Shown: positions 16,435-27,641 of the stretch, piece by piece
Position numbering within the stretch: the first letter of the stretch is position 1
Layout of the letters: the number at the start of each line of letters is the position of its first letter
Origin: an uncultured Bacteroidales bacterium
Lineage (GTDB): Bacteria; Bacteroidota; Bacteroidia; Bacteroidales; S143-33
DNA length: 48,226 nucleotides
Assembly (NCBI GenBank): GCA_964637235.1
Contig: CAZWVR010000005.1
Location: forward strand, 1-48,226
Direction: 5' to 3'
Program-made: the position numbers and the translations under genes
Notes under the pieces: model-generated
Told to the model about the DNA's origin: nothing
Seen by the model: the letters and a program-made list of their open reading frames with translations, nothing else
Databases searched by the model: none

Positions 16435-18300
16435 TTATTCTTTATTTAGCAGTAATTTTTCAATACCTTTTACAGCTCTAAAACCGTCTGCAATAGCACT
16501 TATAGCATCAGCGGTTCTATTGACTGCGTCACCACCGGCGAATATTTTAGGATCTCCGGTTTGTCTGAATTCATTAGTTTTAATTCTACCTCTTTCAATT
16601 TGGATTTTTTCCTTAAATTTATCTGGGATAAATGAGTAATCAGCACCTTGACCGATTGCGGCAATGACAGCAGTTACTTCGATTTCAGTTTCAGAGCCTT
16701 CGATAGGCACAGGACGTGGGCGACCGCCTTTTGGATCAGGAACCATTTCTGCTTTTAGGTACACGAGTTTTTTAACGTGTCCGTTTTCATCACCGATGAT
16801 TTTTACGGGGATACCTTGTGGTATAATTTTTACGCCTTCGGCTTCTGCACCTTCTATTTCTTCCCAATCAGCGGGCATATCTTTTACTCTACGGCGGTAT
16901 AGAATAGTAACATCAGCGCCGAGACGTCTGGCAACGCGAGCTGCGTCAATAGCTACATTTCCTCCACCGATTACAACTACTTTATCGCCTATTTCTACAA
17001 TTTTGTTTGGTTCTTTTATTTTAATAACATTACCTTTTTCATCTCTTACGAAATTGCCATTTTCGTCTTTGAGGAATACGTTATTTACTTCTCGCAAGAA
17101 GTTTATTGCTTGCATAGCTCCTTCAAGGTCTTCTCCTTCAATTCCGAGTTTCCAACCTACTTGAAAACCTACACCTATAAATACAGCGTCGAAGTTGTTG
17201 TATATTTCTTCAAAAGAGATGTCTTTACCTACTCTTGTATTGTATTTTATTTTGACGCCGACTTTTTCCATATATTCAATTTGCTTATACAAGCTATCTA
17301 CTGGGAAACGATATTTAGGTATTCCCCAGGTTATCATTCCACCGGCTTTATTAGTTGCTTCAAAAACAGTGACGTCAAAACCTTTAAGTTTGAGATAATA
17401 AGCAGCGGTAAGTCCAGCCGGACCTGCACCTATAATACCGACTTTAAAGCCATTATCTGGTTTAATTTCAGGATTTATGATTTCGTAAAGTATATCAGCA
17501 GTTTCGGCACGTTCAATAGCGTATCTTTTTAGCCATCTGATAGCGAGAGGTTCTCCGCGTTTCGTGACAGCGCATACTTCTTCACATCTACGTGTACATA
17601 CTTTACCACACATTTCGGGCAGCGGGTTATTATCGTATATAATTCTGATAGCATCTTCGTCGTTTCCTGCGGCGATAGCATTTATATATTCCGGTATATG
17701 CATATGTTCAGGGCAAGCTTCTGTACAAAGTCCACAACCGAGACATCTGCGAGCTTCTTCGCGTGCCTGTTCTTCTGTATATCCTAAAACAACTTCTGCG
17801 AATGATTTTACTCGTTCTTCACCTTCTAATTCAGGCATTGGCACTCTATGGAGCTCTGTAAGAGTAGTTTGCGGGGTACTTATAAATGATGCTCTTTGAT
17901 AGCCATCAGGATTACTAACGCCGGGTGTCCAGAGGAAATCCTCAGGATTTTCGCTAACAAAGATATAGTCTTTTGTCAGACGTAATGAACCAGTAGGGCA
18001 TACTTCTACGCATAGTGCACACCAACAACATCTTCCGTTATCTACTCTTGGTCTTAGACCTGAGTCTCCTTTTTTCGGTTCAATGCCTTCAACAGGCACC
18101 ATATCAATAGCCTTGTTCATACATATTGTGGAACAATTCCCACAGCCAATACATAGTTCCAGATCATTATAGTGTAGTCCTCTGTATCTATCGGAGGCTT
18201 CAACTTCAATTTGCGGGACTAATAGAGTATGGGGCTTTTTGCCCAATTGTGATAATGTTGTTAAAGGTTGAACCGTACCTTTTATATTGAAAAATCCCAT
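16435..18300 (-). CDS. MbsN/NuoI-like 2[4Fe-4S] subunit fused to a GltD-like FAD/NAD(P)H oxidoreductase
   Basis: N-terminus has [17 protein letters not shown] and [12 protein letters not shown]. Then CLGC..CTEACP and CGKVC...CEEVC (GltD/DPD Fe-S domain), GAGPAG (FAD), [11 protein letters not shown]...YRR (NADPH-type site) and FAGGD. Confidence 0.9.
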
Positions 18301-18317: not shown

Positions 18318-19421
18318 TTAACGTTCTATTTCGGGTGGGCATGTACCCAGACTATTCATAATAACCGAAACATCGGCAATATTTTGCCCGACAAGTAAAT
18401 TTTCCAAGAGAGTTATTGCGTGTACGTAAGCAGGACCTTTAACGTGTACTCGTCTTGGATGTGTAGAACCATCGCTTACTACGTAATAAGCAAATTCACC
18501 TCTTGCAGATTCAGTTTTTACGAAGGCTTCTCCTGGAGGAAGTGCCCATTTATGCGGATTAGGTATTTTATTGTAATATTCGCCAGAAGGCATTTGTTCT
18601 AAGACTTGCCTAACAATATTTATTGATTGTCTGATTTCGAATCTTCTTATAAGAGCTCTTGTCCATACATCTCCGCCTTTAAAGGCTGGCACTTCAAATT
18701 TTAGCTTATCATAAACTTCGTAGGGTTCATCTATTCTGACATCACTTCTTATTCCACAAGCACGTAGAGGAGGTCCTACAACGCCCCATTCAATAGCTTT
18801 TTCAGGGTCAATAACGCCGATGCCTTGTGTTCTTTTTTGGAATATTGCATTGTCAAACATTAATCTGTCGTAATCGTCAAGTCTTTTTTCCAAGTAATCC
18901 ATTACTCTGAAAGCTTTATCTTTAAATCCTTTTGGAAGGTCTCGTCTTACGCCACCTGGCCATATATACATATGATAGACACGTCCACCTGTAAGATCTT
19001 CAAATAGGTCAAGGATATAATTTCTATCGCCGATAGACCATTGACCCATAGTATATAGTCCAGTAGATGCTGCTTGTCCACCATACCAGAGGAGATAAGC
19101 TTGTATTCGTGAGAGTTCCAGTACTAATACACGAATATATTTAGCGCGTTCAGGGACTTCTCTTCCTTCAATTTCCTCCACTGCTCTGGCATAGTTTTCT
19201 TCATTTGGATCTGGTTCAGGAACGCAGATACGGCATACTATTGTGAAGCTTTGTAGCCAGTTGCGGCGTTCCATTAGTTTTTCAAAACCTCTATGTAGAT
19301 ACCCCACGTGAGTAGTGGCTTTAACAACAGTATCGCCTTCTACTTCAAGGCGTACCATCATATTACCGGTGATACCGGGGTGTTGGGGTCCTAAGTATAT
19401 TGTAGTTGCTTTTTTTCTCAT
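18318..19421 (-). CDS. MbsL/MbxL (NuoD-like) subunit, without a complete [NiFe] ligand set
   Basis: Motifs GPQHP, GYLHRGFEK, RICVPEPD, GGVRRDL, ESARGE and C-terminal CPPEIER. Confidence 0.9.
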   Translation of the reverse strand: MRKKATTIYLGPQHPGITGNMMVRLEVEGDTVVKATTHVGYLHRGFEKLMERRNWLQSFTIVCRICVPEPDPNEENYARAVEEIEGREVPERAKYIRVLVLELSRIQAYLLWYGGQAASTGLYTMGQWSIGDRNYILDLFEDLTGGRVYHMYIWPGGVRRDLPKGFKDKAFRVMDYLEKRLDDYDRLMFDNAIFQKRTQGIGVIDPEKAIEWGVVGPPLRACGIRSDVRIDEPYEVYDKLKFEVPAFKGGDVWTRALIRRFEIRQSINIVRQVLEQMPSGEYYNKIPNPHKWALPPGEAFVKTESARGEFAYYVVSDGSTHPRRVHVKGPAYVHAITLLENLLVGQNIADVSVIMNSLGTCPPEIER

Positions 19422-19984
19422 CGTGTATATTTCTTTGCAAATTCTGGTATTTCTTCACCTGTACGATTAGCAATAGTCTCACGGACATCTTGTGCGTCCT
19501 CTCTACCAGGACGAGTGAAGTATGTCCGTTTGACATAAGAGAGAGTATCAAAATCTTTACGCATTGGAGGTATGTCTTTCCAGTCTTCAAGTATAAATTC
19601 TCTTTCACCTACAAGACCATCAAATTCAATTCCGAACATTTCTCTTATTTCACGTTCATATGTATTTGCTTGTCTCCAAATATAGTCAATATTAGGAGCG
19701 ACAGGGTTATCTCTGTTGATATAGATTTTGTTAAGGATATTTATTTTATCTTTCGGCGACCAAGTGATATATACAAGTTCAAATTTATTGTCTTCTATCC
19801 AATCTACGCAAGAGATATGTGCCAGATGGATATATCCGAGTTTTTCTTTTTCATAAAGTAGTAATTGTTCAATTGTATCTTTATTTGTTTTTGCTATTAC
19901 TCTTTTATTTCGTTGGATTTTTAGCTCTACTTTGTCGCCGAATTTTTGTTTTATTTGCTCTATTAGAATGTTTTCTTTTTCCAT
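19418..19984 (-). CDS. MbsK/MbxK (NuoC-like) subunit
   Basis: Motifs YEREIREMFGIEF and PPMRKDF. Confidence 0.9.
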   Translation of the reverse strand: MEKENILIEQIKQKFGDKVELKIQRNKRVIAKTNKDTIEQLLLYEKEKLGYIHLAHISCVDWIEDNKFELVYITWSPKDKINILNKIYINRDNPVAPNIDYIWRQANTYEREIREMFGIEFDGLVGEREFILEDWKDIPPMRKDFDTLSYVKRTYFTRPGREDAQDVRETIANRTGEEIPEFAKKYTR

Positions 19985-19995
19985 AATTAGATTTT

Positions 19996-20541
19996 TTACC
20001 AGTTATAATCGGGCATTACCCAGTTATGAATAATTTTCTTTTGATTTTGCCTGTAGAATTCAAAGTTTTCTTTATAACGTTTCCATCCGTCAGCTCTACC
20101 TTCTTGAATAAGTTTTTGGAGTTTTACGAAGCCGGCTATAACAGCTTCTGGTCTTGGCATACAGCCGTTAATATATACATCTACAGGCAGGTACATATCT
20201 AAGCGATTTATTGTATTGTAGGAGTCCCAATACATACCGCCATTGATAGTGCAGGAACCAAACCCCATAACATATTTTGGATCTTGCATCTGTTCATAAA
20301 CTCTTATAACACGTTTGAGAGTTTTTGTAGCCAGATACCCGGTAATTAATAAAACATCGGCTTGTCTTGGAGTAGCGGCACCTCTGATACCGAAACGTTC
20401 GGCATCGTAGCGAGATGTCATTGTAGGGGGAATTTCTATTGCTCCACACCCTGTCCCGTATGCTAAAACAAATAGAGAGTTTTTACGGGCAAAGTTTTTA
20501 ATTATTTCAATTATGCTTTGTGAATATTTATCGTTAATCAT
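19996..20541 (-). CDS. MbsJ/MbxJ (NuoB-like) [4Fe-4S] subunit
   Basis: Motifs TGCGAIE, RYDAERFG, PRQAD, GSCTINGG and PVDVYINGCMPRPEA. Confidence 0.92.
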   Translation of the reverse strand: MINDKYSQSIIEIIKNFARKNSLFVLAYGTGCGAIEIPPTMTSRYDAERFGIRGAATPRQADVLLITGYLATKTLKRVIRVYEQMQDPKYVMGFGSCTINGGMYWDSYNTINRLDMYLPVDVYINGCMPRPEAVIAGFVKLQKLIQEGRADGWKRYKENFEFYRQNQKKIIHNWVMPDYNW

Positions 20542-20552
20542 TTTTCAAGATT

Positions 20553-21461
20553 TTAGAATATTGTTGCTTGAATTAAACCGATTAAGCCGAAAAATAGAGG
20601 CCAACCCCAGAAATATCTTACTGCCTGTTCAGTTCTAAATCTTGGAGAAACTATGCTCCAGAGAACGGGGTACATATAAACAGCAAAAGTTTTTAGTATG
20701 AGCGTTCCTAAGTTTGTAGCACCTGCCATAAAAAGATCTACAAATAGAGTGAGTTTAACAAAGGCGAATATAGAGCCACTTGTCATCATCAAACCGAGAT
20801 ATTTCCCTCCAAATTCAGAGATTGGTCCGGAAGCCAATTCAGCAGGGGCTCCAACAATATCAAAAGGCGAATATCTAAACATCCCTGGCAGTGTCATCAA
20901 AGCAGCTAAGAAAGCAAATGGAGAACTAAATAAAAACCATGTATGTTGTTGTTGCTGAATAGCTACTAAATCAGAGACTGATGTAGTTTTATATTGAATC
21001 ATTAAACTGATTAGAGCTATCACCCAAGGTATTTCAAATCCAACCATTTGGGTTAGCCCTCTGCTAACACCGATAGTAGAGTTAGGGTTTCCCGTTTGAC
21101 CAGCACCCAATGCCATACCCAAAGGTCCAAATACCATAAGGTAAAGTAATAAGACCAAGTCGCCATTAAAAGTCAAATTTGTAAAGAAGTGACTACCATA
21201 TACTATCGGAATAAACAATAGTGTAGTAATGGACATGGCAATTAACCATAGAGGTGCCAGATGTTGCATTATTCCATGATTGATGTTTGAAGTCTTTGCC
21301 CAAAGTTTAGTAACATCAATAAAGTTCTGATATATAGGAGGACCTACACGATTTTGTGCTCTTGCTATAATTTTTCTACGAATTCCGGCATAAGTCATTC
21401 CCACAATAAAGGCTATTAATGCCGATACAGTTGCACTTAATATTAATTTCCAGATTTCCAT
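20553..21461 (-). CDS. MbsM/MbxM (NuoH-like) membrane anchor subunit
   Basis: Motifs RKIIARAQNRVGPP, PFDI...ELASGPISEFGG and PRFR; multi-TM. Confidence 0.92.
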   Translation of the reverse strand: MEIWKLILSATVSALIAFIVGMTYAGIRRKIIARAQNRVGPPIYQNFIDVTKLWAKTSNINHGIMQHLAPLWLIAMSITTLLFIPIVYGSHFFTNLTFNGDLVLLLYLMVFGPLGMALGAGQTGNPNSTIGVSRGLTQMVGFEIPWVIALISLMIQYKTTSVSDLVAIQQQQHTWFLFSSPFAFLAALMTLPGMFRYSPFDIVGAPAELASGPISEFGGKYLGLMMTSGSIFAFVKLTLFVDLFMAGATNLGTLILKTFAVYMYPVLWSIVSPRFRTEQAVRYFWGWPLFFGLIGLIQATIF

Positions 21462-21473
21462 TGTTCTTTATTT

Positions 21474-23309
21474 TTATAGGAAAAGATTTTTTAGCAGAAA
21501 CAAAATAGTTAAAAATATAACCACATAAGTGGCATAAGTTTGAGTATTACCGTTGTATATACGGCGTAAGAATTGGAAAAAGTCTTCCAGTCCAGTAGCT
21601 ATTTCATTGTAAAATTTAGATATTTTGTATTTTAATATTGGTCCTAATGCTCTTTGAAATGGACGATAAAAATCTACGGAATAGTGATAATTATCATCAG
21701 GACGAACAGGCTCACCTGCATTAGCAATATCTTTTGTAGTAACGTAGCGTGTATTTTTCCGTCCGTAAAAAGTGATTATAATCAAAAATAGAATGAATAC
21801 AGAAGCTAATGTAATAATAGTTGTTTTTAACCATATACTATTGTGCCACTCGTTTGTCAATACAGAAATTTTATAAGTAATATCAGTGAAGCCCAAATCA
21901 CCCATAGCATTTGCTATTGGTTTAAAAATCAGTCCAGGGAATGTACCTAATACTATTAGCGTAATAGCAATCAAAAGCATTGGGACTACCATTAATGGGT
22001 GAGCTTCTTTTACGTTTTCAAATTCTTTTTCTTCTTGACCTAAGAATATCCCAAATAGAAATCTAAAACTGTAAAGAAAGGCAGCTGTTGAAGATAAGAA
22101 AATTAGGATTACTAAATATACATGTCCTGATGTTATTAAAGATTCATAAAGCATCCATTTACCTACAAAGCCAGCTAATGGAGGCACTCCTGCCAGTGCA
22201 ATTATAGATATCAACGCGGCAAAGAAGGTATATGGCATTTTACGAATTAAACCTCTGAGTTCATTGAAATCAGTTGTTCCAGTTTGTTTTTCCACTGCAC
22301 CGGCTACCATAAAAAGATTTGCTTTGAACAGACCATGCATAAGTGCTAAAAATATTCCTGCAAAAATACTTAATTTAGTACCTATACCTAAACCTGTAAT
22401 AATATAACCGAGCTGTCCAATAGATGAATATGCAAGCAGTTTTCGGATATCATCTTGGAATATAGCATAGAATGTTGCTAAAACAGCAGTTATAGCACCG
22501 AACCAAGCTAATATAACACTACCAGTATGCAAACCTGAGTGGTTAAACATATTTATTGCTACAAATCCAATACCGTAGATACCCATCTTTGAGAGAGCCC
22601 CTGAAAATACATCTGTATATGCCATAGGAGCATTTGAATATGCATCAGGAGCCCATACATGCAGTGGCATCATAGCACTTTTTACTGCAAAGCCGGTTAG
22701 GAGCAATAATCCAATCAATAGTTGCATTCCGAGAGATAGGTTCGGAAATGCAGTGAAAAATTGTTCTATGTATAGAGTGCCTGTAAGTTTATTTATTAGT
22801 ACAATTCCCATAAACATAGAATATGCTCCTAATGCGCTGAATATCATATATTTCAATCCTGCTTGGTCAACATTCCTACCATTGTATATAACTAATAGAT
22901 ATGAAGACCATGTCATTATTTCCCAAAAGAAAAATAATGAGACAAAGTCTTTACTTACTAAAATTCCCAGCATTGCCCCAATAGAAAGCAGAAAATTAAA
23001 GAAAAACCAAGCTTGTCTATATTTGCTTTCCTTTTTCATATAAGGGATAGCATATAACAAAGCCAAAGACGCTAAAACAACAATTAAAATAGCAAAAATC
23101 CATGAATAGTCAGTAAATTCCCAACCTAAGGATAAATGTATTAATGAAAAATTAAATTCAGAGAATCTTACAGTGAAAAAATAAATGGGCAATGCTAACG
23201 CTTCTATCAATACAATTATTTGTCCCAATAATTTATTTAATACAAATGCGATATATGTAATTACGGCTCCTGCAAAAAGCATTAAAAGTAGTAAAACAAT
23301 AGTGTTCAT
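21474..23309 (-). CDS. MbsH'/MrpA-D-like ion-translocating subunit with C-terminal lateral-helix region
   Basis: Motifs FFWE, PLHVWAPDAY, SKMG, LLAYSSIGQLG and GVPPLAGFVGKW; extended C-terminus with GNTQTY plus a TM. Confidence 0.88.
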   Translation of the reverse strand: MNTIVLLLLMLFAGAVITYIAFVLNKLLGQIIVLIEALALPIYFFTVRFSEFNFSLIHLSLGWEFTDYSWIFAILIVVLASLALLYAIPYMKKESKYRQAWFFFNFLLSIGAMLGILVSKDFVSLFFFWEIMTWSSYLLVIYNGRNVDQAGLKYMIFSALGAYSMFMGIVLINKLTGTLYIEQFFTAFPNLSLGMQLLIGLLLLTGFAVKSAMMPLHVWAPDAYSNAPMAYTDVFSGALSKMGIYGIGFVAINMFNHSGLHTGSVILAWFGAITAVLATFYAIFQDDIRKLLAYSSIGQLGYIITGLGIGTKLSIFAGIFLALMHGLFKANLFMVAGAVEKQTGTTDFNELRGLIRKMPYTFFAALISIIALAGVPPLAGFVGKWMLYESLITSGHVYLVILIFLSSTAAFLYSFRFLFGIFLGQEEKEFENVKEAHPLMVVPMLLIAITLIVLGTFPGLIFKPIANAMGDLGFTDITYKISVLTNEWHNSIWLKTTIITLASVFILFLIIITFYGRKNTRYVTTKDIANAGEPVRPDDNYHYSVDFYRPFQRALGPILKYKISKFYNEIATGLEDFFQFLRRIYNGNTQTYATYVVIFLTILFLLKNLFL

Positions 23310-23321
23310 TTGAATCTTTTT

Positions 23322-24806
23322 TTAATTTAAACCTAAGTTTGGCAAAACGCTGTGAATATAATTTTGCTTATCTATTAAGGCATCAGTAGCCTGTTGAATA
23401 TATGAAGTGATTAAATCAGGATAAAGACCTACAACTATAATTGTCAATCCTAAGATAAGCATAGCAGCCATAGCATTCCAGCGGGGTTTTTGTACTTGAT
23501 ATTTTCCGGTATATTCTCTAAAATATAATCTGTGAATCACTCTGAAGTAATAAACTATTTCCACAATGCTGACAGAGAGTATCAAAGCTAATAGAACTAC
23601 CATACCTTTATTAGCAGTAGCCATTAACAGATATAATTTACCCCAGAAGCCAGAGAAAGGAGGCAATCCTACAATAGCGAAAGCTCCCAGAGAAAATAAC
23701 AAAGCAGTTAATGGCATTTGTTTGCCCATACCCTCTAAATCGCTGATATATTTTACTTTTGAGTTATATACCAAGAAACTGGCAGAAAGGAATAATAGAG
23801 ATTTAATGACAGCATGATTAAATAAAACAAATAAACCTGCAAAAATTCCCAATTGAGTATTTAATCCGAAAGCAATCATAATTAAGCCAATCTGCCCTAT
23901 ACTAGAATATGCTAACATTCTTTTAATTTTTTCTTGTCTAAGCGCTATTGTTTCAGCAAAAACCAGTGTTATGACGCCCATAATTAGCAAAGTCTTATAG
24001 GCAGAAGATATATCAAAGAGGGTATAAATCATTCTAATTAGGGCGTATAGACCAGCCTTTGAAGTCATAGCTGCAAATACAGAACCAATAGGTCCGGGAG
24101 CTTGTGAGTAAGCATCGGGAGCCCAGCCATTTAATGGGAACATTTCGGCTTCGATGCCAAAGCCTACAAATAATAATATGAAAATCAGAACTTTTAGTTT
24201 CGGAGGTATTTTGTCAATATTTGCAGCAATATCAGCCATGTTTAAAGTTCCTAAATGACCATAAATCAATGCAATTCCCAGAAGAATAAACACAGAGGAG
24301 AAACTCCCGACAATAAGATATTTAAATGCAGCTTCGGCACCATCTCTTCCGCGATAAAAAGCTGTTAGAGAATAAGCACTGATTGAAGTTATTTCCAAAA
24401 ATACGAACTGGTTGAAAATATCACCAGTAATTACTACGCCGATACTTCCTGCTACAATTAGCATTAGTAATACAAAGTATTTAACGGCATTGTCAAATTC
24501 TACCTTTTTGAATAAATAGCTATATGCCCATACCAAAAATGCCAGAAGTGATATTACAGTAGCAATAAATCCACTGAAAGGCGTAAACATCAGATTGATA
24601 CCCAAAGGAGGTGCCCAACCTGCTATCTCTGTAATAATGGGTTTATCTACGCTGGTTTGCATGAGTAAAACTACTGCATTGACCGCCAAGTATGCGAATA
24701 ATAAACCGGGAATTATTCTAATTAAACTTTTGTGTATTTTGCCAAATAATGGCAACAAAAAAGCGGTCAATAACGGCAATGCTATAAAATAAATTGGACT
24801 TACCAT
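23322..24806 (-). CDS. MbsH/MrpD-like ion-translocating subunit
   Basis: Motifs GWAPPLGI, TGDIFN..VFLE, EAAFKY, WAPDAY, KRMLAYSS and GLPPFSGFWGK. Confidence 0.9.
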   Translation of the reverse strand: MVSPIYFIALPLLTAFLLPLFGKIHKSLIRIIPGLLFAYLAVNAVVLLMQTSVDKPIITEIAGWAPPLGINLMFTPFSGFIATVISLLAFLVWAYSYLFKKVEFDNAVKYFVLLMLIVAGSIGVVITGDIFNQFVFLEITSISAYSLTAFYRGRDGAEAAFKYLIVGSFSSVFILLGIALIYGHLGTLNMADIAANIDKIPPKLKVLIFILLFVGFGIEAEMFPLNGWAPDAYSQAPGPIGSVFAAMTSKAGLYALIRMIYTLFDISSAYKTLLIMGVITLVFAETIALRQEKIKRMLAYSSIGQIGLIMIAFGLNTQLGIFAGLFVLFNHAVIKSLLFLSASFLVYNSKVKYISDLEGMGKQMPLTALLFSLGAFAIVGLPPFSGFWGKLYLLMATANKGMVVLLALILSVSIVEIVYYFRVIHRLYFREYTGKYQVQKPRWNAMAAMLILGLTIIVVGLYPDLITSYIQQATDALIDKQNYIHSVLPNLGLN

Positions 24807-25192
24807 TTTAGATTTTTTATTTCGTCAATATTTGTTGTATTATGATGTCTGTATAGACGCACAATAAGAGCTAATCCTACGGCTGTTACACCAAAACCGA
24901 TGACAATAGCCGTAAGAACGAGAGCCTGAGGAACGGGATCTACCATCTGTACACTTATACCTTTGTGGATTTTCTCCATAATTGATGGAGAAAAAATGGG
25001 TGCTGTACCGTTATTTATGTATCCTATCGAAATCAATAATAGATTTACACCAGAATCTACAATGGAGAATGAAAGCATAATTTTTATTAAATTCTTTTTA
25101 GTAAGCACCCCATAAAAACCTATCATTATTAACAGAAGCGAAGTACCATAAAAAGTATAAGTAAGTATCTGATTTATAGTTAATTCACTCAT
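24800..25192 (-). CDS. MbsG/MrpC (MnhC) subunit
   Basis: Motifs KNLIK and DPVPQALVLTAIVIG. Confidence 0.93.
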   Translation of the reverse strand: MSELTINQILTYTFYGTSLLLIMIGFYGVLTKKNLIKIMLSFSIVDSGVNLLLISIGYINNGTAPIFSPSIMEKIHKGISVQMVDPVPQALVLTAIVIGFGVTAVGLALIVRLYRHHNTTNIDEIKNLKW

Positions 25193-25925
25193 TATTATTA
25201 TTTTTAGAATTGGTATTTACATCGACAGAAATGGACAAAAGAGTATCCAATATACCAGTAAGTTCTGCTGCAACTTTAAATCCGACTGCAATGTATATCA
25301 ATGGGATAATACCACCGCTGAGTAAATCATTAAGTTTCCCGGTAAGCATAAAGTTTTCAAGAAAGTCTTTACCAAGTATCAAACCCATTATACCTAATCC
25401 TGCAAAAGTAGCTCCTGCTAATGATTCAATCCAAGTGATAGTATTATGTTTTACAGCAAATTTTCTATATGCTATTAAAAGGAATAGGTATCCTGTAGCA
25501 ATAATTACACCACCTTGAAAACCTCCACCGGGTGTTAAGTGTCCGTGAATGAATACATAGCCTCCTAATAAAATCATCAGAGGGAATAGAGCTTTACCTG
25601 CAACCTGAACTATCCTACTTGCCTGAACAGAACGACGTCTTGGGTTAAGTTCTGTGTGAATTTCTCTACGACGAAATAATATACTTGCTAATCCTGTTGA
25701 AGCTAAGAATAGTACAGTTACTTCTCCTAAGGTATCAAAACCTCTATAATTTACTACTACTGCCGTCACTACATTAGCTACTTGTAAATCTTTGGGAGTT
25801 TTTTCTATATAAGCTTTTGCTACGTTCATTCTATTTTTTCCAAATTGCACACTTAAAAATCCTCCTATTAGAATGAAAAAGATATAAGCAAGTAGGATAA
25901 ATATTATAACCCCTTTTAGTTTCAT
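25185..25925 (-). CDS. MbsE/MrpB (MnhB) subunit
   Basis: Motifs NVVTAVVVNYRGFDTLGE and GHLTPGGGFQGG. Confidence 0.93.
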   Translation of the reverse strand: MKLKGVIIFILLAYIFFILIGGFLSVQFGKNRMNVAKAYIEKTPKDLQVANVVTAVVVNYRGFDTLGEVTVLFLASTGLASILFRRREIHTELNPRRRSVQASRIVQVAGKALFPLMILLGGYVFIHGHLTPGGGFQGGVIIATGYLFLLIAYRKFAVKHNTITWIESLAGATFAGLGIMGLILGKDFLENFMLTGKLNDLLSGGIIPLIYIAVGFKVAAELTGILDTLLSISVDVNTNSKNNNNE

Positions 25926-25940
25926 TTGATAAAATTTTTA

Positions 25941-26192
25941 TTATTCTTCTTCTCGTTTAGTGTTTTTGATAGTAACTACAAAAATAATAGTAGTCAGAGC
26001 TACACCTATTGCAGCTTCGGTTAAAGCAACATCTGGTGCCTGTAAAACGAAATAGAAAGCCGACAGTATTAGACTAATGATAGAACTTGCAATAGTTGCT
26101 ACCAGTAAGTCTTTATGGCTCACTACATAAATGGAGACGATTATTAAAATCAAGGCACCAATTATAATTAGAGCGGTCAATAACGTTGTCAT
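25941..26192 (-). CDS. MbsD (DUF4040, MnhB-related) small subunit
   Basis: Motif QAPDVALTEAAIG; 3 TM. Confidence 0.9.
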   Translation of the reverse strand: MTTLLTALIIIGALILIIVSIYVVSHKDLLVATIASSIISLILSAFYFVLQAPDVALTEAAIGVALTTIIFVVTIKNTKREEE

Positions 26193-26533
26193 TGTTTATT
26201 ATTTTTAGGATTATCAACTTCTTCGTATGCATCGGTTATTTTTACTTTTGGTTTAATACCAGCCCGATGCGAACCTCTTGCAATAGCGTGGGAGCTTATT
26301 GGATTAGAGAGTGCTATAAACAGAATTATGATAAAAAGCTTAAAGAACCAATCTGGTTGCAAAAGAGCTACTCCAAATATTAAACTCATAGCACCCATAG
26401 TAGAAGCTTTGGTGCCTGCTTGTAAACGGGAGTATATATCAGGCATTCTTAGTATTCCCAAAGCTCCTAAAAAGAGAAATATTGCTCCCAATACAATGAA
26501 AAATGAACCTAAGTATGTAAGTATTGTATTCAT
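26189..26533 (-). CDS. MbsC/MrpG (MnhG) subunit
   Basis: Motifs GILRMPDIYSRLQAGTK and PISSHAIAR. Confidence 0.93.
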   Translation of the reverse strand: MNTILTYLGSFFIVLGAIFLFLGALGILRMPDIYSRLQAGTKASTMGAMSLIFGVALLQPDWFFKLFIIILFIALSNPISSHAIARGSHRAGIKPKVKITDAYEEVDNPKNNKQ

Positions 26534-26534
26534 A

Positions 26535-26807
26535 TTAAACCCCTCCTTCTAAATATCTTGCAATTACAACTATCCCTAAGAAGCCTAAGGCTGCATATAT
26601 CAGAGATACATCAACATAGATGAAACGTTGGAAAATATATCCGAATAGGATAAGCCCACCGATGATAGTAACAGACATTGTATCGGTAGCGACAACTCTA
26701 TCGGAGGCTTCTGGCCCTTTCATAAATCTTATAAATGCCAGAATGATCCCAATTCCTATTAGTACCAGTGCTGTATAAACAGAGTATTGAACTACAATGT
26801 TTTCCAT
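26535..26807 (-). CDS. MbsB/MrpF (MnhF) subunit
   Basis: Motifs GPEASDRVVATD and ARYL. Confidence 0.92.
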   Translation of the reverse strand: MENIVVQYSVYTALVLIGIGIILAFIRFMKGPEASDRVVATDTMSVTIIGGLILFGYIFQRFIYVDVSLIYAALGFLGIVVIARYLEGGV

Positions 26808-26817
26808 AGTATATTTT

Positions 26818-27360
26818 TTATTGATAGATTTTCAATAGTATTTTTTCAAAAGGATAAGCTATTTCTTTGTAAACTTCTTCAGGATCTGTTGCTTCTACTG
26901 TAAGCCAGTGAATGTAAAATCTATTTTCTACAATATCCACGGTAAATGTTCCGGGAGTTAGAGTGATACTATTTGCCAGAATCATTTTTGCAAAATCAGA
27001 GTTTAATTTGCTTTCAAATTCCACTATACCGGGATTGATAGGTAGTTTGGGATTTATAACTATCATTGCTACGTGAAAATTAGCTTTTATCAATGCCCAT
27101 AAGAATACGAAAATATATTCAACGATATATAACAATCTTTTGGGTGAAAGATTAGCTAAGCCGAGAGATGTGAAAGTTTTATATCCATATATTGCAATAA
27201 TAAAGCTTACTACTACTCCCATAACTACCTCTTGCAAGGCAAAAGTAGAAGTAAAGGCGAGCCATATTAAAAAGATAAATAAAAAAGTGAACAAGAATTT
27301 ACTAATAAGACTCGCATTTGTTTTTGCCTCTGCTTGTGATACTGTGTTTTTTTCTGTCAT
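26818..27360 (-). CDS. MbsA/MrpE (MnhE) subunit
   Basis: Motifs KANFHVA, INPGIV, ANSITLTPGT and YIHWL. Confidence 0.93.
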   Translation of the reverse strand: MTEKNTVSQAEAKTNASLISKFLFTFLFIFLIWLAFTSTFALQEVVMGVVVSFIIAIYGYKTFTSLGLANLSPKRLLYIVEYIFVFLWALIKANFHVAMIVINPKLPINPGIVEFESKLNSDFAKMILANSITLTPGTFTVDIVENRFYIHWLTVEATDPEEVYKEIAYPFEKILLKIYQ

Positions 27361-27362
27361 AG

Positions 27363-27641
27363 TTAACGCTTTATGTTGAAAGAATTAAATTCTTTATATT
27401 GTATATCAGAGACTTCGACGTTAGAGATGTCTGCCAATTCTGGTCCTTTATTACAGTAATAGACAAGTTTTTCAAGTTTGTTTGGTTCTCCATATGCTTC
27501 AACATATACAGATCCATCTGGCATATTTTTAACATATCCTGTGATTCCTAATCTATTAGCTCGTTCCCATATATAATAGCGAAATCCAATTCCTTGTACT
27601 TTTGGACCTGTAATATGAATTTTAATGCCTTTTTTAGTCAT
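27363..27641 (-). CDS. acyP: Acylphosphatase
   Basis: Motifs VQGIGFR, GYVKNMPDGSV and GPELA. Its stop is 2 nt before the mrpE-like start. Confidence 0.92.
   Translation of the reverse strand: MTKKGIKIHITGPKVQGIGFRYYIWERANRLGITGYVKNMPDGSVYVEAYGEPNKLEKLVYYCNKGPELADISNVEVSDIQYKEFNSFNIKR

Follow-up and report, generated by a model that had tools for sequence, protein, structure and literature searches.

The MbsN-GltD fusion protein of an uncultured Bacteroidales bacterium as putative NAD(P)H-input subunit of an MBS-type complex

Contig CAZWVR010000005.1 (assembly GCA_964637235.1) of an uncultured Bacteroidales bacterium, analysed here over a stretch of 48,226 nucleotides (the window), carries a 13-gene operon on the minus strand whose Pfam families follow each other in MBS order from position 27360 to 16435. 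Its last gene encodes a 621-amino-acid (aa) protein, P0001, in which an MbsN-like iron-sulfur (Fe-S) domain is fused to a GltD-like flavoprotein. Judged by its families and their hallmark residues, the operon is of the MBS type (membrane-bound sulfane reductase, formerly Mbx) and not of the complex I or MBH type, and sequence comparisons lend good support to the structural reading, in which its product is an MBS-type complex that contains an NAD(P)H module of its own. The MbsN-GltD fusion as such is already catalogued (PRK13984) and is widespread in anaerobic bacteria. As part of the best explanation, P0001 would be the electron-input subunit of a bacterial MBS-type respiratory complex, and we give about an even chance to the fuller proposal that this complex is an ion-pumping NAD(P)H:sulfane-sulfur oxidoreductase. 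This functional reading appears plausible and has a rival in an older model from the literature.

The fusion gene and its operon

The fusion gene and the features of its product are located as follows.

16435..18300, minus: mbsN-gltD fusion gene encoding P0001, 621 aa, last of the 13-gene operon
17926..18276, minus: NuoI/MbsN-like domain, residues 9-125 (NCBIfam NuoI models and match to 6u8y_N)
17851..17925, minus: inter-module linker, residues 126-150 (AlphaFold2 and read-through in 80/80 related loci)
17500..17814, minus: Fe-S domain Fer4_20 of the GltD/dihydropyrimidine dehydrogenase (DPD) type, residues 163-267 (Pfam)
16483..17445, minus: FAD/NAD(P)H-binding module Pyr_redox_2, residues 286-606 (Pfam, NfnB alignments, Foldseek)
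17413-17430, minus: GAGPAG (FAD), residues 291-296 (read from the translation)
17008..17079, minus: lineage-specific 24-aa insertion, residues 408-431 (alignment of 16 sequences)
16951-16968, minus: GGGNVA, residues 445-450 (read from the translation)
16888-16899, minus: YRRR, residues 468-471 (read from the translation)

The reading frame runs from an ATG start through 621 codons with zero internal stops, and Pfam places a 4Fe-4S dicluster domain (Fer4_7) at residues 50-104, Fer4_20 at 163-267 and Pyr_redox_2 at 286-606. A first-pass annotation made from the letters had described a 621-aa open reading frame with NuoI-like and GltD/DPD-type domains, a GAGPAG site and a GGGNVA...YRR stretch, and Pfam, NCBIfam and the translation agree with it. 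Two CxxCxxCxxxC motifs lie in the NuoI/MbsN-like domain (C50-C60 and C91-C101) and two further Cys sets in Fer4_20 (C186/189/192/196 and C231/235/239/243); by their motifs, these are the sites of four [4Fe-4S] clusters, two per module, and 16/16 Cys are invariant across an alignment of 57 sequences.

When the two modules were compared with PDB sequences, residues 11-120 matched MbsN best (6u8y_N, 76.9 bits), while in the same search the NuoI chains of complex I scored 45.6-47 bits and MbhN 35. Residues 151-617 matched NfnB-type chains best (5jca_L 305 bits, 4ylf_B 298, 5vj7_A 293), with only 193 bits for the GltD of glutamate synthase (6s6s_G). A GltD-like module consists of an N-terminal domain with two [4Fe-4S] sites, an adrenodoxin-reductase-like FAD domain and an NAD(P)H site (PMC8097209), and P0001 accordingly shows Fer4_20, Pyr_redox_2, eight invariant Cys, GAGPAG, GGGNVA and a fold match to the GltD-like/NfnB module. 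The AlphaFold2 model, built from 57 sequences, has a mean predicted local distance difference test score (pLDDT) of 88.8 and a predicted template modelling score (pTM) of 0.84, and its best Foldseek match is 5jca_L with a template modelling score (TM) of 0.90 normalised to the target. Like this NfnB/NfnI large subunit (SudA; 5JCA, 4YLF) of the NADH-dependent ferredoxin:NADP+ oxidoreductase, to which it is about 39% identical, the flavoprotein is predicted to hold two [4Fe-4S] clusters, FAD and an NADPH site with YRR; its first GltD-type cluster motif is a plain CxxCxxCxxxC, unlike the spaced form of 4ylf_B. The gene for the NfnA partner (PyrK-like, 2Fe-2S and FAD) is absent from the window operon, in contrast to NfnAB, and the Fe-S end of the flavoprotein is joined to a complex I-type subunit, whereas that of NfnB meets free ferredoxin.

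The GGGNxA...YRR stretch is common to both NADPH-using NfnB structures aligned (5JCA, 4YLF), in keeping with the likeness to NADPH proteins that had been read from it at first. The arginines of YRR probably have a role in NADPH binding, and a preference of P0001 for NADPH seems probable from this stretch. Between the modules, blocks 121-160 are modelled with a pLDDT of 89-92, and such a confident linker would fit a fixed arrangement of the two halves. When residues 1-140 and 141-621 were modelled as two partners of a complex, the median score was 0.28 where the mark is 0.32, which speaks neither for nor against an interface. The 24-aa insertion sits just ahead of the NADPH-binding strand; it contains an internal near-repeat, is modelled with a pLDDT of about 51 and, among the 16 sequences displayed, is found only in P0001 and the 90%-identical P0002.

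Upstream of the fusion gene lie the other twelve genes of the operon and, before them, an acylphosphatase gene.

27363..27641, minus: acylphosphatase gene, 2 bases upstream of mbsA (Pfam Acylphosphatase)
26818..27360, minus: mbsA-like (MnhE), 180 aa, first gene of the operon (Pfam MNHE)
26535..26807, minus: mbsB-like (MnhF), 90 aa (Pfam MrpF_PhaF)
26189..26533, minus: mbsC-like (MnhG), 114 aa (Pfam PhaG_MnhG_YufB)
25941..26192, minus: mbsD-like (MbhD), 83 aa (Pfam MbhD)
25185..25925, minus: mbsE-like (MnhB and MbhE domains), 246 aa (Pfam MnhB and MbhE)
24800..25192, minus: mbsG-like (MnhC/NuoK family), 130 aa (Pfam Oxidored_q2)
23322..24806, minus: mbsH-like antiporter-type subunit, 494 aa (6u8y_H, 387.8 bits, 7-491 against 8-491)
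21474..23309, minus: mbsH'-like antiporter-type subunit, 611 aa (6u8y_X, 300 bits, 2-604 against 2-614)
20553..21461, minus: mbsM-like (NuoH family), 302 aa (Pfam NADHdh)
19996..20541, minus: mbsJ-like (NuoB family), 181 aa (6u8y_J, 237.5 bits, ungapped)
19418..19984, minus: mbsK-like (NuoC family), 188 aa (Pfam Complex1_30kDa)
18318..19421, minus: mbsL-like (NuoD family), 367 aa (6u8y_L, 375 bits, 6-367 against 26-391)

We take the gene order of the Pyrococcus furiosus MBS to be the same as that of the window operon. Like the P. furiosus complex (6U8Y), the predicted product has thirteen subunits of the same families, a distal module of the Mrp type and two antiporter-like pump subunits, H and H', where MBH has one. 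The structural work on the archaeal enzyme, of which part of the text was available, counts the subunits as A, B, C, D, E, G, H, H', M, J, K, L and N, and describes a proximal cluster in MbsJ that is ligated by C28, C93 and C123 only, with a shortened loop, and an MbsL in which the quinone-site residues H38 and Y87 of Nqo4 are absent and the vestigial NiFe residues C85 and C385 are kept (PMC7684303). The window proteins share these traits: C32, C97 and C127 of J align with the three MbsJ ligands without a gap, T18 and V67 of L stand at the positions of Nqo4 H38 and Y87, and C66 and C361 of L align with MbsL C85 and C385. With L, J, H and H' matching 6u8y chains end to end and these hallmarks kept, the MBS-type setting proposed in the first-pass annotation holds. 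Two differences from the P. furiosus proteins were seen, in that J has Gly29 at the position of the non-ligand Cys25 of MbsJ, and in L three of the four positions of NiFe-ligating Cys are still Cys (C63, C66 and C361, the fourth being Glu) where MbsL has two. According to the same passages, MBS mutants C25A and C85A/C385A are still active (PMC7684303), so that the differences at these Cys need not matter. MBS is further defined by an L subunit without E21, the proton-reduction residue of MbhL, and by the reduction of polysulfide or dimethyl trisulfide (DMTS) with build-up of an ion gradient.

The clearest departure is in N, since the archaeal MbsN has 208 aa and accepts free ferredoxin, whereas the window protein adds an NfnB-like FAD/NADPH module of about 480 aa; moreover, the host is bacterial and its best named matches are in Bacteroidota, unlike archaeal MBS. 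With complex I/NDH-1 the operon shares the peripheral families I, D, C and B and membrane subunits of the H, K and L/M/N types; it differs from it by the absence of NuoEFG, by the missing quinone-site residues in L, by a proximal cluster in J that lacks the tandem Cys-Cys of NuoB and by its Mrp-type distal module. No NuoE, NuoF or NuoG family was found by Pfam among the 14 operon products, as expected from the earlier claim of an input module unrelated to NuoEFG. Two further candidates were rejected: a quinone-reducing analogue of complex I, as the quinone-site residues are missing in L, and a hydrogenase, as Glu replaces the fourth NiFe Cys and the gene set is of the MBS type.

The acylphosphatase gene is possibly co-transcribed with mbsA, and no counterpart of it was seen upstream of the operon in 80 related loci. 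A scan of the window for promoters and terminators returned fewer sites than shuffled sequence (40 against 54.8 and 5 against 6.9).

Conservation and distribution of the fusion

A scan of one genome per species recovered at least 589 stretches, 581 of them encoding relatives of P0001, and all locus counts given here rest on the best 80. The patterns used in the scan lie in the MbsN-like domain, so the fusion state of all 581 relatives is not implied. The fusion junction is read through in one frame in 80/80 of the best loci; 71/80 cover residues 10-613 or more, while the remaining 9 end at contig edges. The L gene lies directly upstream of N on the same strand in 73/73 loci with more than 1200 nt upstream, and of the 49 loci with 9 kb or more of upstream sequence, 44 have all 12 upstream genes in the same order; among the other five, two are without a detectable 83-aa D gene and three are more widely spaced and run off the fetched flank. 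Conservation extends to the residues on which the MBS assignment rests, with the 16 Cys of N present in 77/77 complete related loci, the three-Cys pattern of J with Gly in 67 of 68 readable loci (the remaining one has Cys, as in Pyrococcus) and Thr plus Val at the quinone-site positions of L in 76/76. The C63/C66/C361 pattern of L is more variable: it is present in 59/76 readable loci, and one or two of the three are lost in 17/76, so that these Cys positions of L are not essential.

A word-indexed search listed full-length relatives of P0001, at 66-90% identity, in 120/120 of the matches listed, and P0001 is thus not a chance reading frame; the named ones among them are mostly from Bacteroidales/Bacteroidota, besides Candidatus Sulfidibacterium hydrothermale and a metagenome-assembled genome (MAG) titled 'Chlorobi'. 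In a library clustered at 50% identity, 11 clusters match end to end (P0123-P0131, P0134 and P0135, at 43-51% identity), and P0122 (63% identity) appears to be a twelfth full-length fusion cluster. By their record titles, the best 80 loci come from Bacteroidales, Rikenellaceae, Marinilabiliaceae, Flavobacteriales, Saccharicrinis, Draconibacterium, Melioribacter/Ignavibacteriales and Chlorobiota, and also from Calditrichaceae, Neomarinimicrobiota, Acidobacteria/Aminicenantes/Thermoanaerobaculia, Fibrobacteraceae, Fermentibacteria, Spirochaetes and WOR-3. N is 63% identical to P0001 in two MAGs titled Leptospira biflexa (L034) and Turneriella parva (L037), species labels that look doubtful, and 64% identical in one titled Melioribacter roseus (L036). 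The passages found of the genome papers on M. roseus and Caldithrix abyssi contain no description of the operon. Within the phylum the fusion is sporadic: among 400 other genomes sampled, 2 had a match of the fusion type, at 62% identity and with an open frame of about 600 aa, and the rest gave ordinary NuoI-sized frames at no more than 40% identity.

The same architecture is known from a different clade. The NCBIfam model NF010590/PRK13984 ('putative oxidoreductase'), which represents the Thermotogae-type MbxN-GltD fusion, aligns to P0001 over its whole length (7-620 against 9-609 of 611) with 637 bits, below its equivalog cut-off of 946, and the Thermosipho melanesiensis protein P0127 passes that cut-off with 1195 bits. 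The available passages of a 2015 paper describe the fusion at the end of an mbx-like operon in Thermotoga, and operons that often end with rubrerythrin (PMC4758237). The domain search and taxonomic survey that had been suggested for the fusion thus confirm it and find it in many phyla, and the earlier remark, made with regard to Thermotoga mbx operons, that the architecture may not be unique was well founded.

Could the fusion nevertheless be an artefact of assembly or gene calling that joins two separate genes, as the first-pass annotation had cautioned? The genome is a draft of 254 contigs. In one read assembly (X1), which is possibly the source itself, a single contig spans the full stretch with 0 differences; three assemblies from another study (X2-X4) contain identical short pieces of 151-270 letters in both modules, none of those listed spans the junction, and the junction is accordingly left unbridged by the second study's sequencing runs, the apparent joints there being from diverged relatives of low similarity and disregarded. 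Against this stand the intact junction in 80/80 loci from independent records, the dozen or so 50%-identity clusters that are full-length fusions, the same layout in the cultured Thermosipho and the existence of a curated full-length model. An artefact therefore has next to no likelihood and is excluded for practical purposes.

Electron path and competing functional readings

In the scheme that we favour, the simplest one to give each conserved part a role, NADPH would donate a hydride to the FAD of P0001, from which single electrons would pass through the two GltD-type [4Fe-4S] clusters and the two MbsN-type clusters to the three-Cys proximal cluster of J. At this site-differentiated cluster sulfane sulfur, in the form of polysulfide or a different S-S compound, would be reduced in the L/J/M pocket, and the reduction would drive the membrane arm (H, H' and the Mrp-type module) to move H+ or Na+. 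The fusion would in effect take the place of diffusible ferredoxin, the link between Nfn and MBS in Pyrococcus. What we infer here is that NADPH is the specific donor, that electrons flow in this direction, that sulfane sulfur accepts them and that the complex pumps ions. The host genome (87% complete) contains an NfnA-like/NfnB-like pair (contig C9, 33070-37464) and two Rnf/Nqr-type clusters (C28, 1205-2364, and C35, 1364-2593); with these, NADPH could come from ferredoxin and NADH and be spent at the complex. No second NuoD-family gene was found in this 87% complete genome, and the MBS-type complex may thus be the only complex I relative of its host. The 4.4-fold rise of Thermotoga maritima mbxA on S0 (PMC9431562) also speaks for the scheme.

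Several points weigh against this scheme. By textbook midpoint potentials, the step from NADPH to polysulfide yields about 10-20 kJ per two electrons. Such an energy span is small, similar to the 12 kJ per two electrons quoted for MBH (PMC8165549). The clusters of NfnB have very low potentials, -718 and -513 mV (PMC8097209), and if these were kept in P0001 the transfer from NADPH to the clusters would be uphill. The operon is present in the MAG record labelled M. roseus, and in culture neither S0 nor thiosulfate stimulated Melioribacter roseus, according to the part of the report available (PMC3534657). A literature search, with most subscription journals outside its reach, found no biochemical assay of the bacterial complex. 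Finally, the DHOD-like (dihydroorotate dehydrogenase-like) or rubrerythrin-like genes that flank many related operons hint at further redox partners outside the model, and in two printed accounts, both available in part, the Mbx of bacteria is assigned the role of a ferredoxin:NAD(P)+ oxidoreductase (PMC4758237; 10.1101/322537).

These accounts correspond to an unlikely but serious alternative, in which ferredoxin would feed the complex and the fused flavoprotein would be an NADP+ exit, so that an ion-pumping ferredoxin:NADP+ oxidoreductase with an Rnf-like function would be built on a complex I scaffold. Besides the older Mbx model (PMC4758237), it is favoured by a Mesotoga preprint, whose available passages treat Mbx as a Na+-exporting NADP:ferredoxin oxidoreductase (10.1101/322537), and by the ability of GltD/NfnB modules to run in both directions (PMC8097209). 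Electrons going from ferredoxin through the N clusters to FAD would, however, bypass the J cluster and the L/J/M pocket, which are the coupling site in all solved relatives and are strictly conserved, with the three-Cys J in 67/68 loci. On energy, the alternative fares better, since the span from ferredoxin to NADP+ exceeds that from NADPH to polysulfide. The host, on the other hand, is already equipped with an NfnAB-like pair and with two clusters of the Rnf/Nqr type, and structural work on the P. furiosus enzyme, as far as available, presents it as a direct polysulfide reductase (PMC7684303). The Thermotoga maritima MBX has in turn been read as a ferredoxin-dependent sulfur reductase by Liang et al. 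2022, with mbxA up 4.4-fold on S0, in the passages available (PMC9431562).

A rather improbable reading makes the complex a three-way redox hub or a flavin-based bifurcating complex, in which the NfnB-like FAD would split or merge electrons between the sulfane site and a second partner, for instance a DHOD-like FMN protein, an NfnA-like protein or rubrerythrin. The flavoprotein of P0001 is indeed closer to the bifurcating NfnB than to GltD, and genes for such partners do occur next to related operons. A DHOD-like gene of about 329 aa (NF005741, PRK07565, 'dihydroorotate dehydrogenase-like protein'; 385-417 bits, cut-off 303) directly adjoins the operon in 26/80 loci, 15 times after N and 11 times before mbsA, many other loci being without the needed flank, and 11 loci have a rubrerythrin-like gene (about 150 aa) immediately after N.

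DHOD-like gene after N: L035, L038, L039, L045, L046, L054, L060, L069, L073, L075, L078, L080, L083, L087, L088
DHOD-like gene before mbsA: L010, L011, L013, L016, L017, L018, L020, L022, L026, L027, L042
Rubrerythrin-like gene just after N: L037, L040, L057, L061, L062, L066, L067, L068, L077, L085, L086

Together with the MbsN-type dicluster and the GltD-like module, a DHOD-like protein would complete the cofactor-domain set of DPD, which combines exactly these domains (PMC8097209). It is thus conceivable, though quite doubtful, that fused N and the PRK07565 DHOD-like protein form a split, permuted DPD-like module on the MBS pump, whose MbsN-type clusters would join the FAD/NAD(P)H, FMN/substrate and sulfane-reducing sites. 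If this were true, bifurcation or confurcation would be coupled to ion transport, in a membrane-bound energy converter so far undescribed. Such a hub is without biochemical precedent, and no partner genes of this kind lie beside the window operon: the DHOD-like family has no match in the window, in contrast to DPD-type PreT/PreA, where the gene of the DHOD-like FMN subunit would be a neighbour. The two DHOD-like copies of the host genome have unrelated neighbours and share 36-49% identity with those linked to operons, which is lower than expected for orthologues, and 54/80 loci are without a visible linked DHOD-like gene, many of them short of the needed flank. A literature search for a link between DHOD-like proteins and Mbx returned nothing relevant.

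The densest cluster of candidate partners seen is in a Flavobacteriia MAG (L054, 9805-13101), where an NfnA-like gene, a second GltD-like match and then a DHOD-like gene come after the operon, and which favours the hub. The same can be said of P0129 (764 aa), whose long C-terminal extension is rubrerythrin-like by eye. The rubrerythrin-like genes after N are in line with the available passages on mbx-like operons (PMC4758237).

Very improbable, in our judgement, is a complex working in reverse, with an ion gradient lifting electrons from sulfide/polysulfide or another weak donor to NADP+. The redox gap is small and the reaction reversible in principle, and complex I relatives can run backwards. 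Nothing, however, indicates sulfide oxidation by the MBS cluster, an NfnAB-like pair is at hand in the genome for NADPH supply, and the inducer of mbx in T. maritima, S0, is an oxidant, in the passages available (PMC9431562).

Cofactor-motif clades and significance of the family

The fusions fall into two clades by the motif that follows GGGNVA. YRRR is present in 64/75 readable loci, the window included, while (S/C)LE replaces YRR in 11/75 (L069, L071-L073, L075, L078, L080, L083, L084, L087 and L088) and in the Thermosipho P0127, with an insertion after the Rossmann helix; the corresponding clusters are P0127-P0135. An acidic residue at this site usually goes with NADH. The Thermotogae-type and Bacteroidota-type proteins may thus differ in their nucleotide. 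This YRR/SLE split and the linkage with DHOD-like genes are newly seen details.

If the reading as an NAD(P)H:sulfane-sulfur oxidoreductase is true, many anaerobic bacteria would possess a respiratory pump in which NADPH is spent directly on the reduction of sulfur compounds. By record titles, the carriers include Bacteroidota, Ignavibacteria, Calditrichaceae, Acidobacteria/Aminicenantes, Fermentibacteria, Spirochaetes, WOR-3 and Marinimicrobia, to which Thermotogae are added by Thermosipho. The complex would then be a relative of complex I whose input module differs both from NuoEFG and from free ferredoxin, which bears on the sulfur cycle of sulfidic habitats and on the way in which input modules were exchanged as complex I evolved. 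Altogether, the value of these observations lies less in the single window than in the family, as a biochemical target with cultured carriers.

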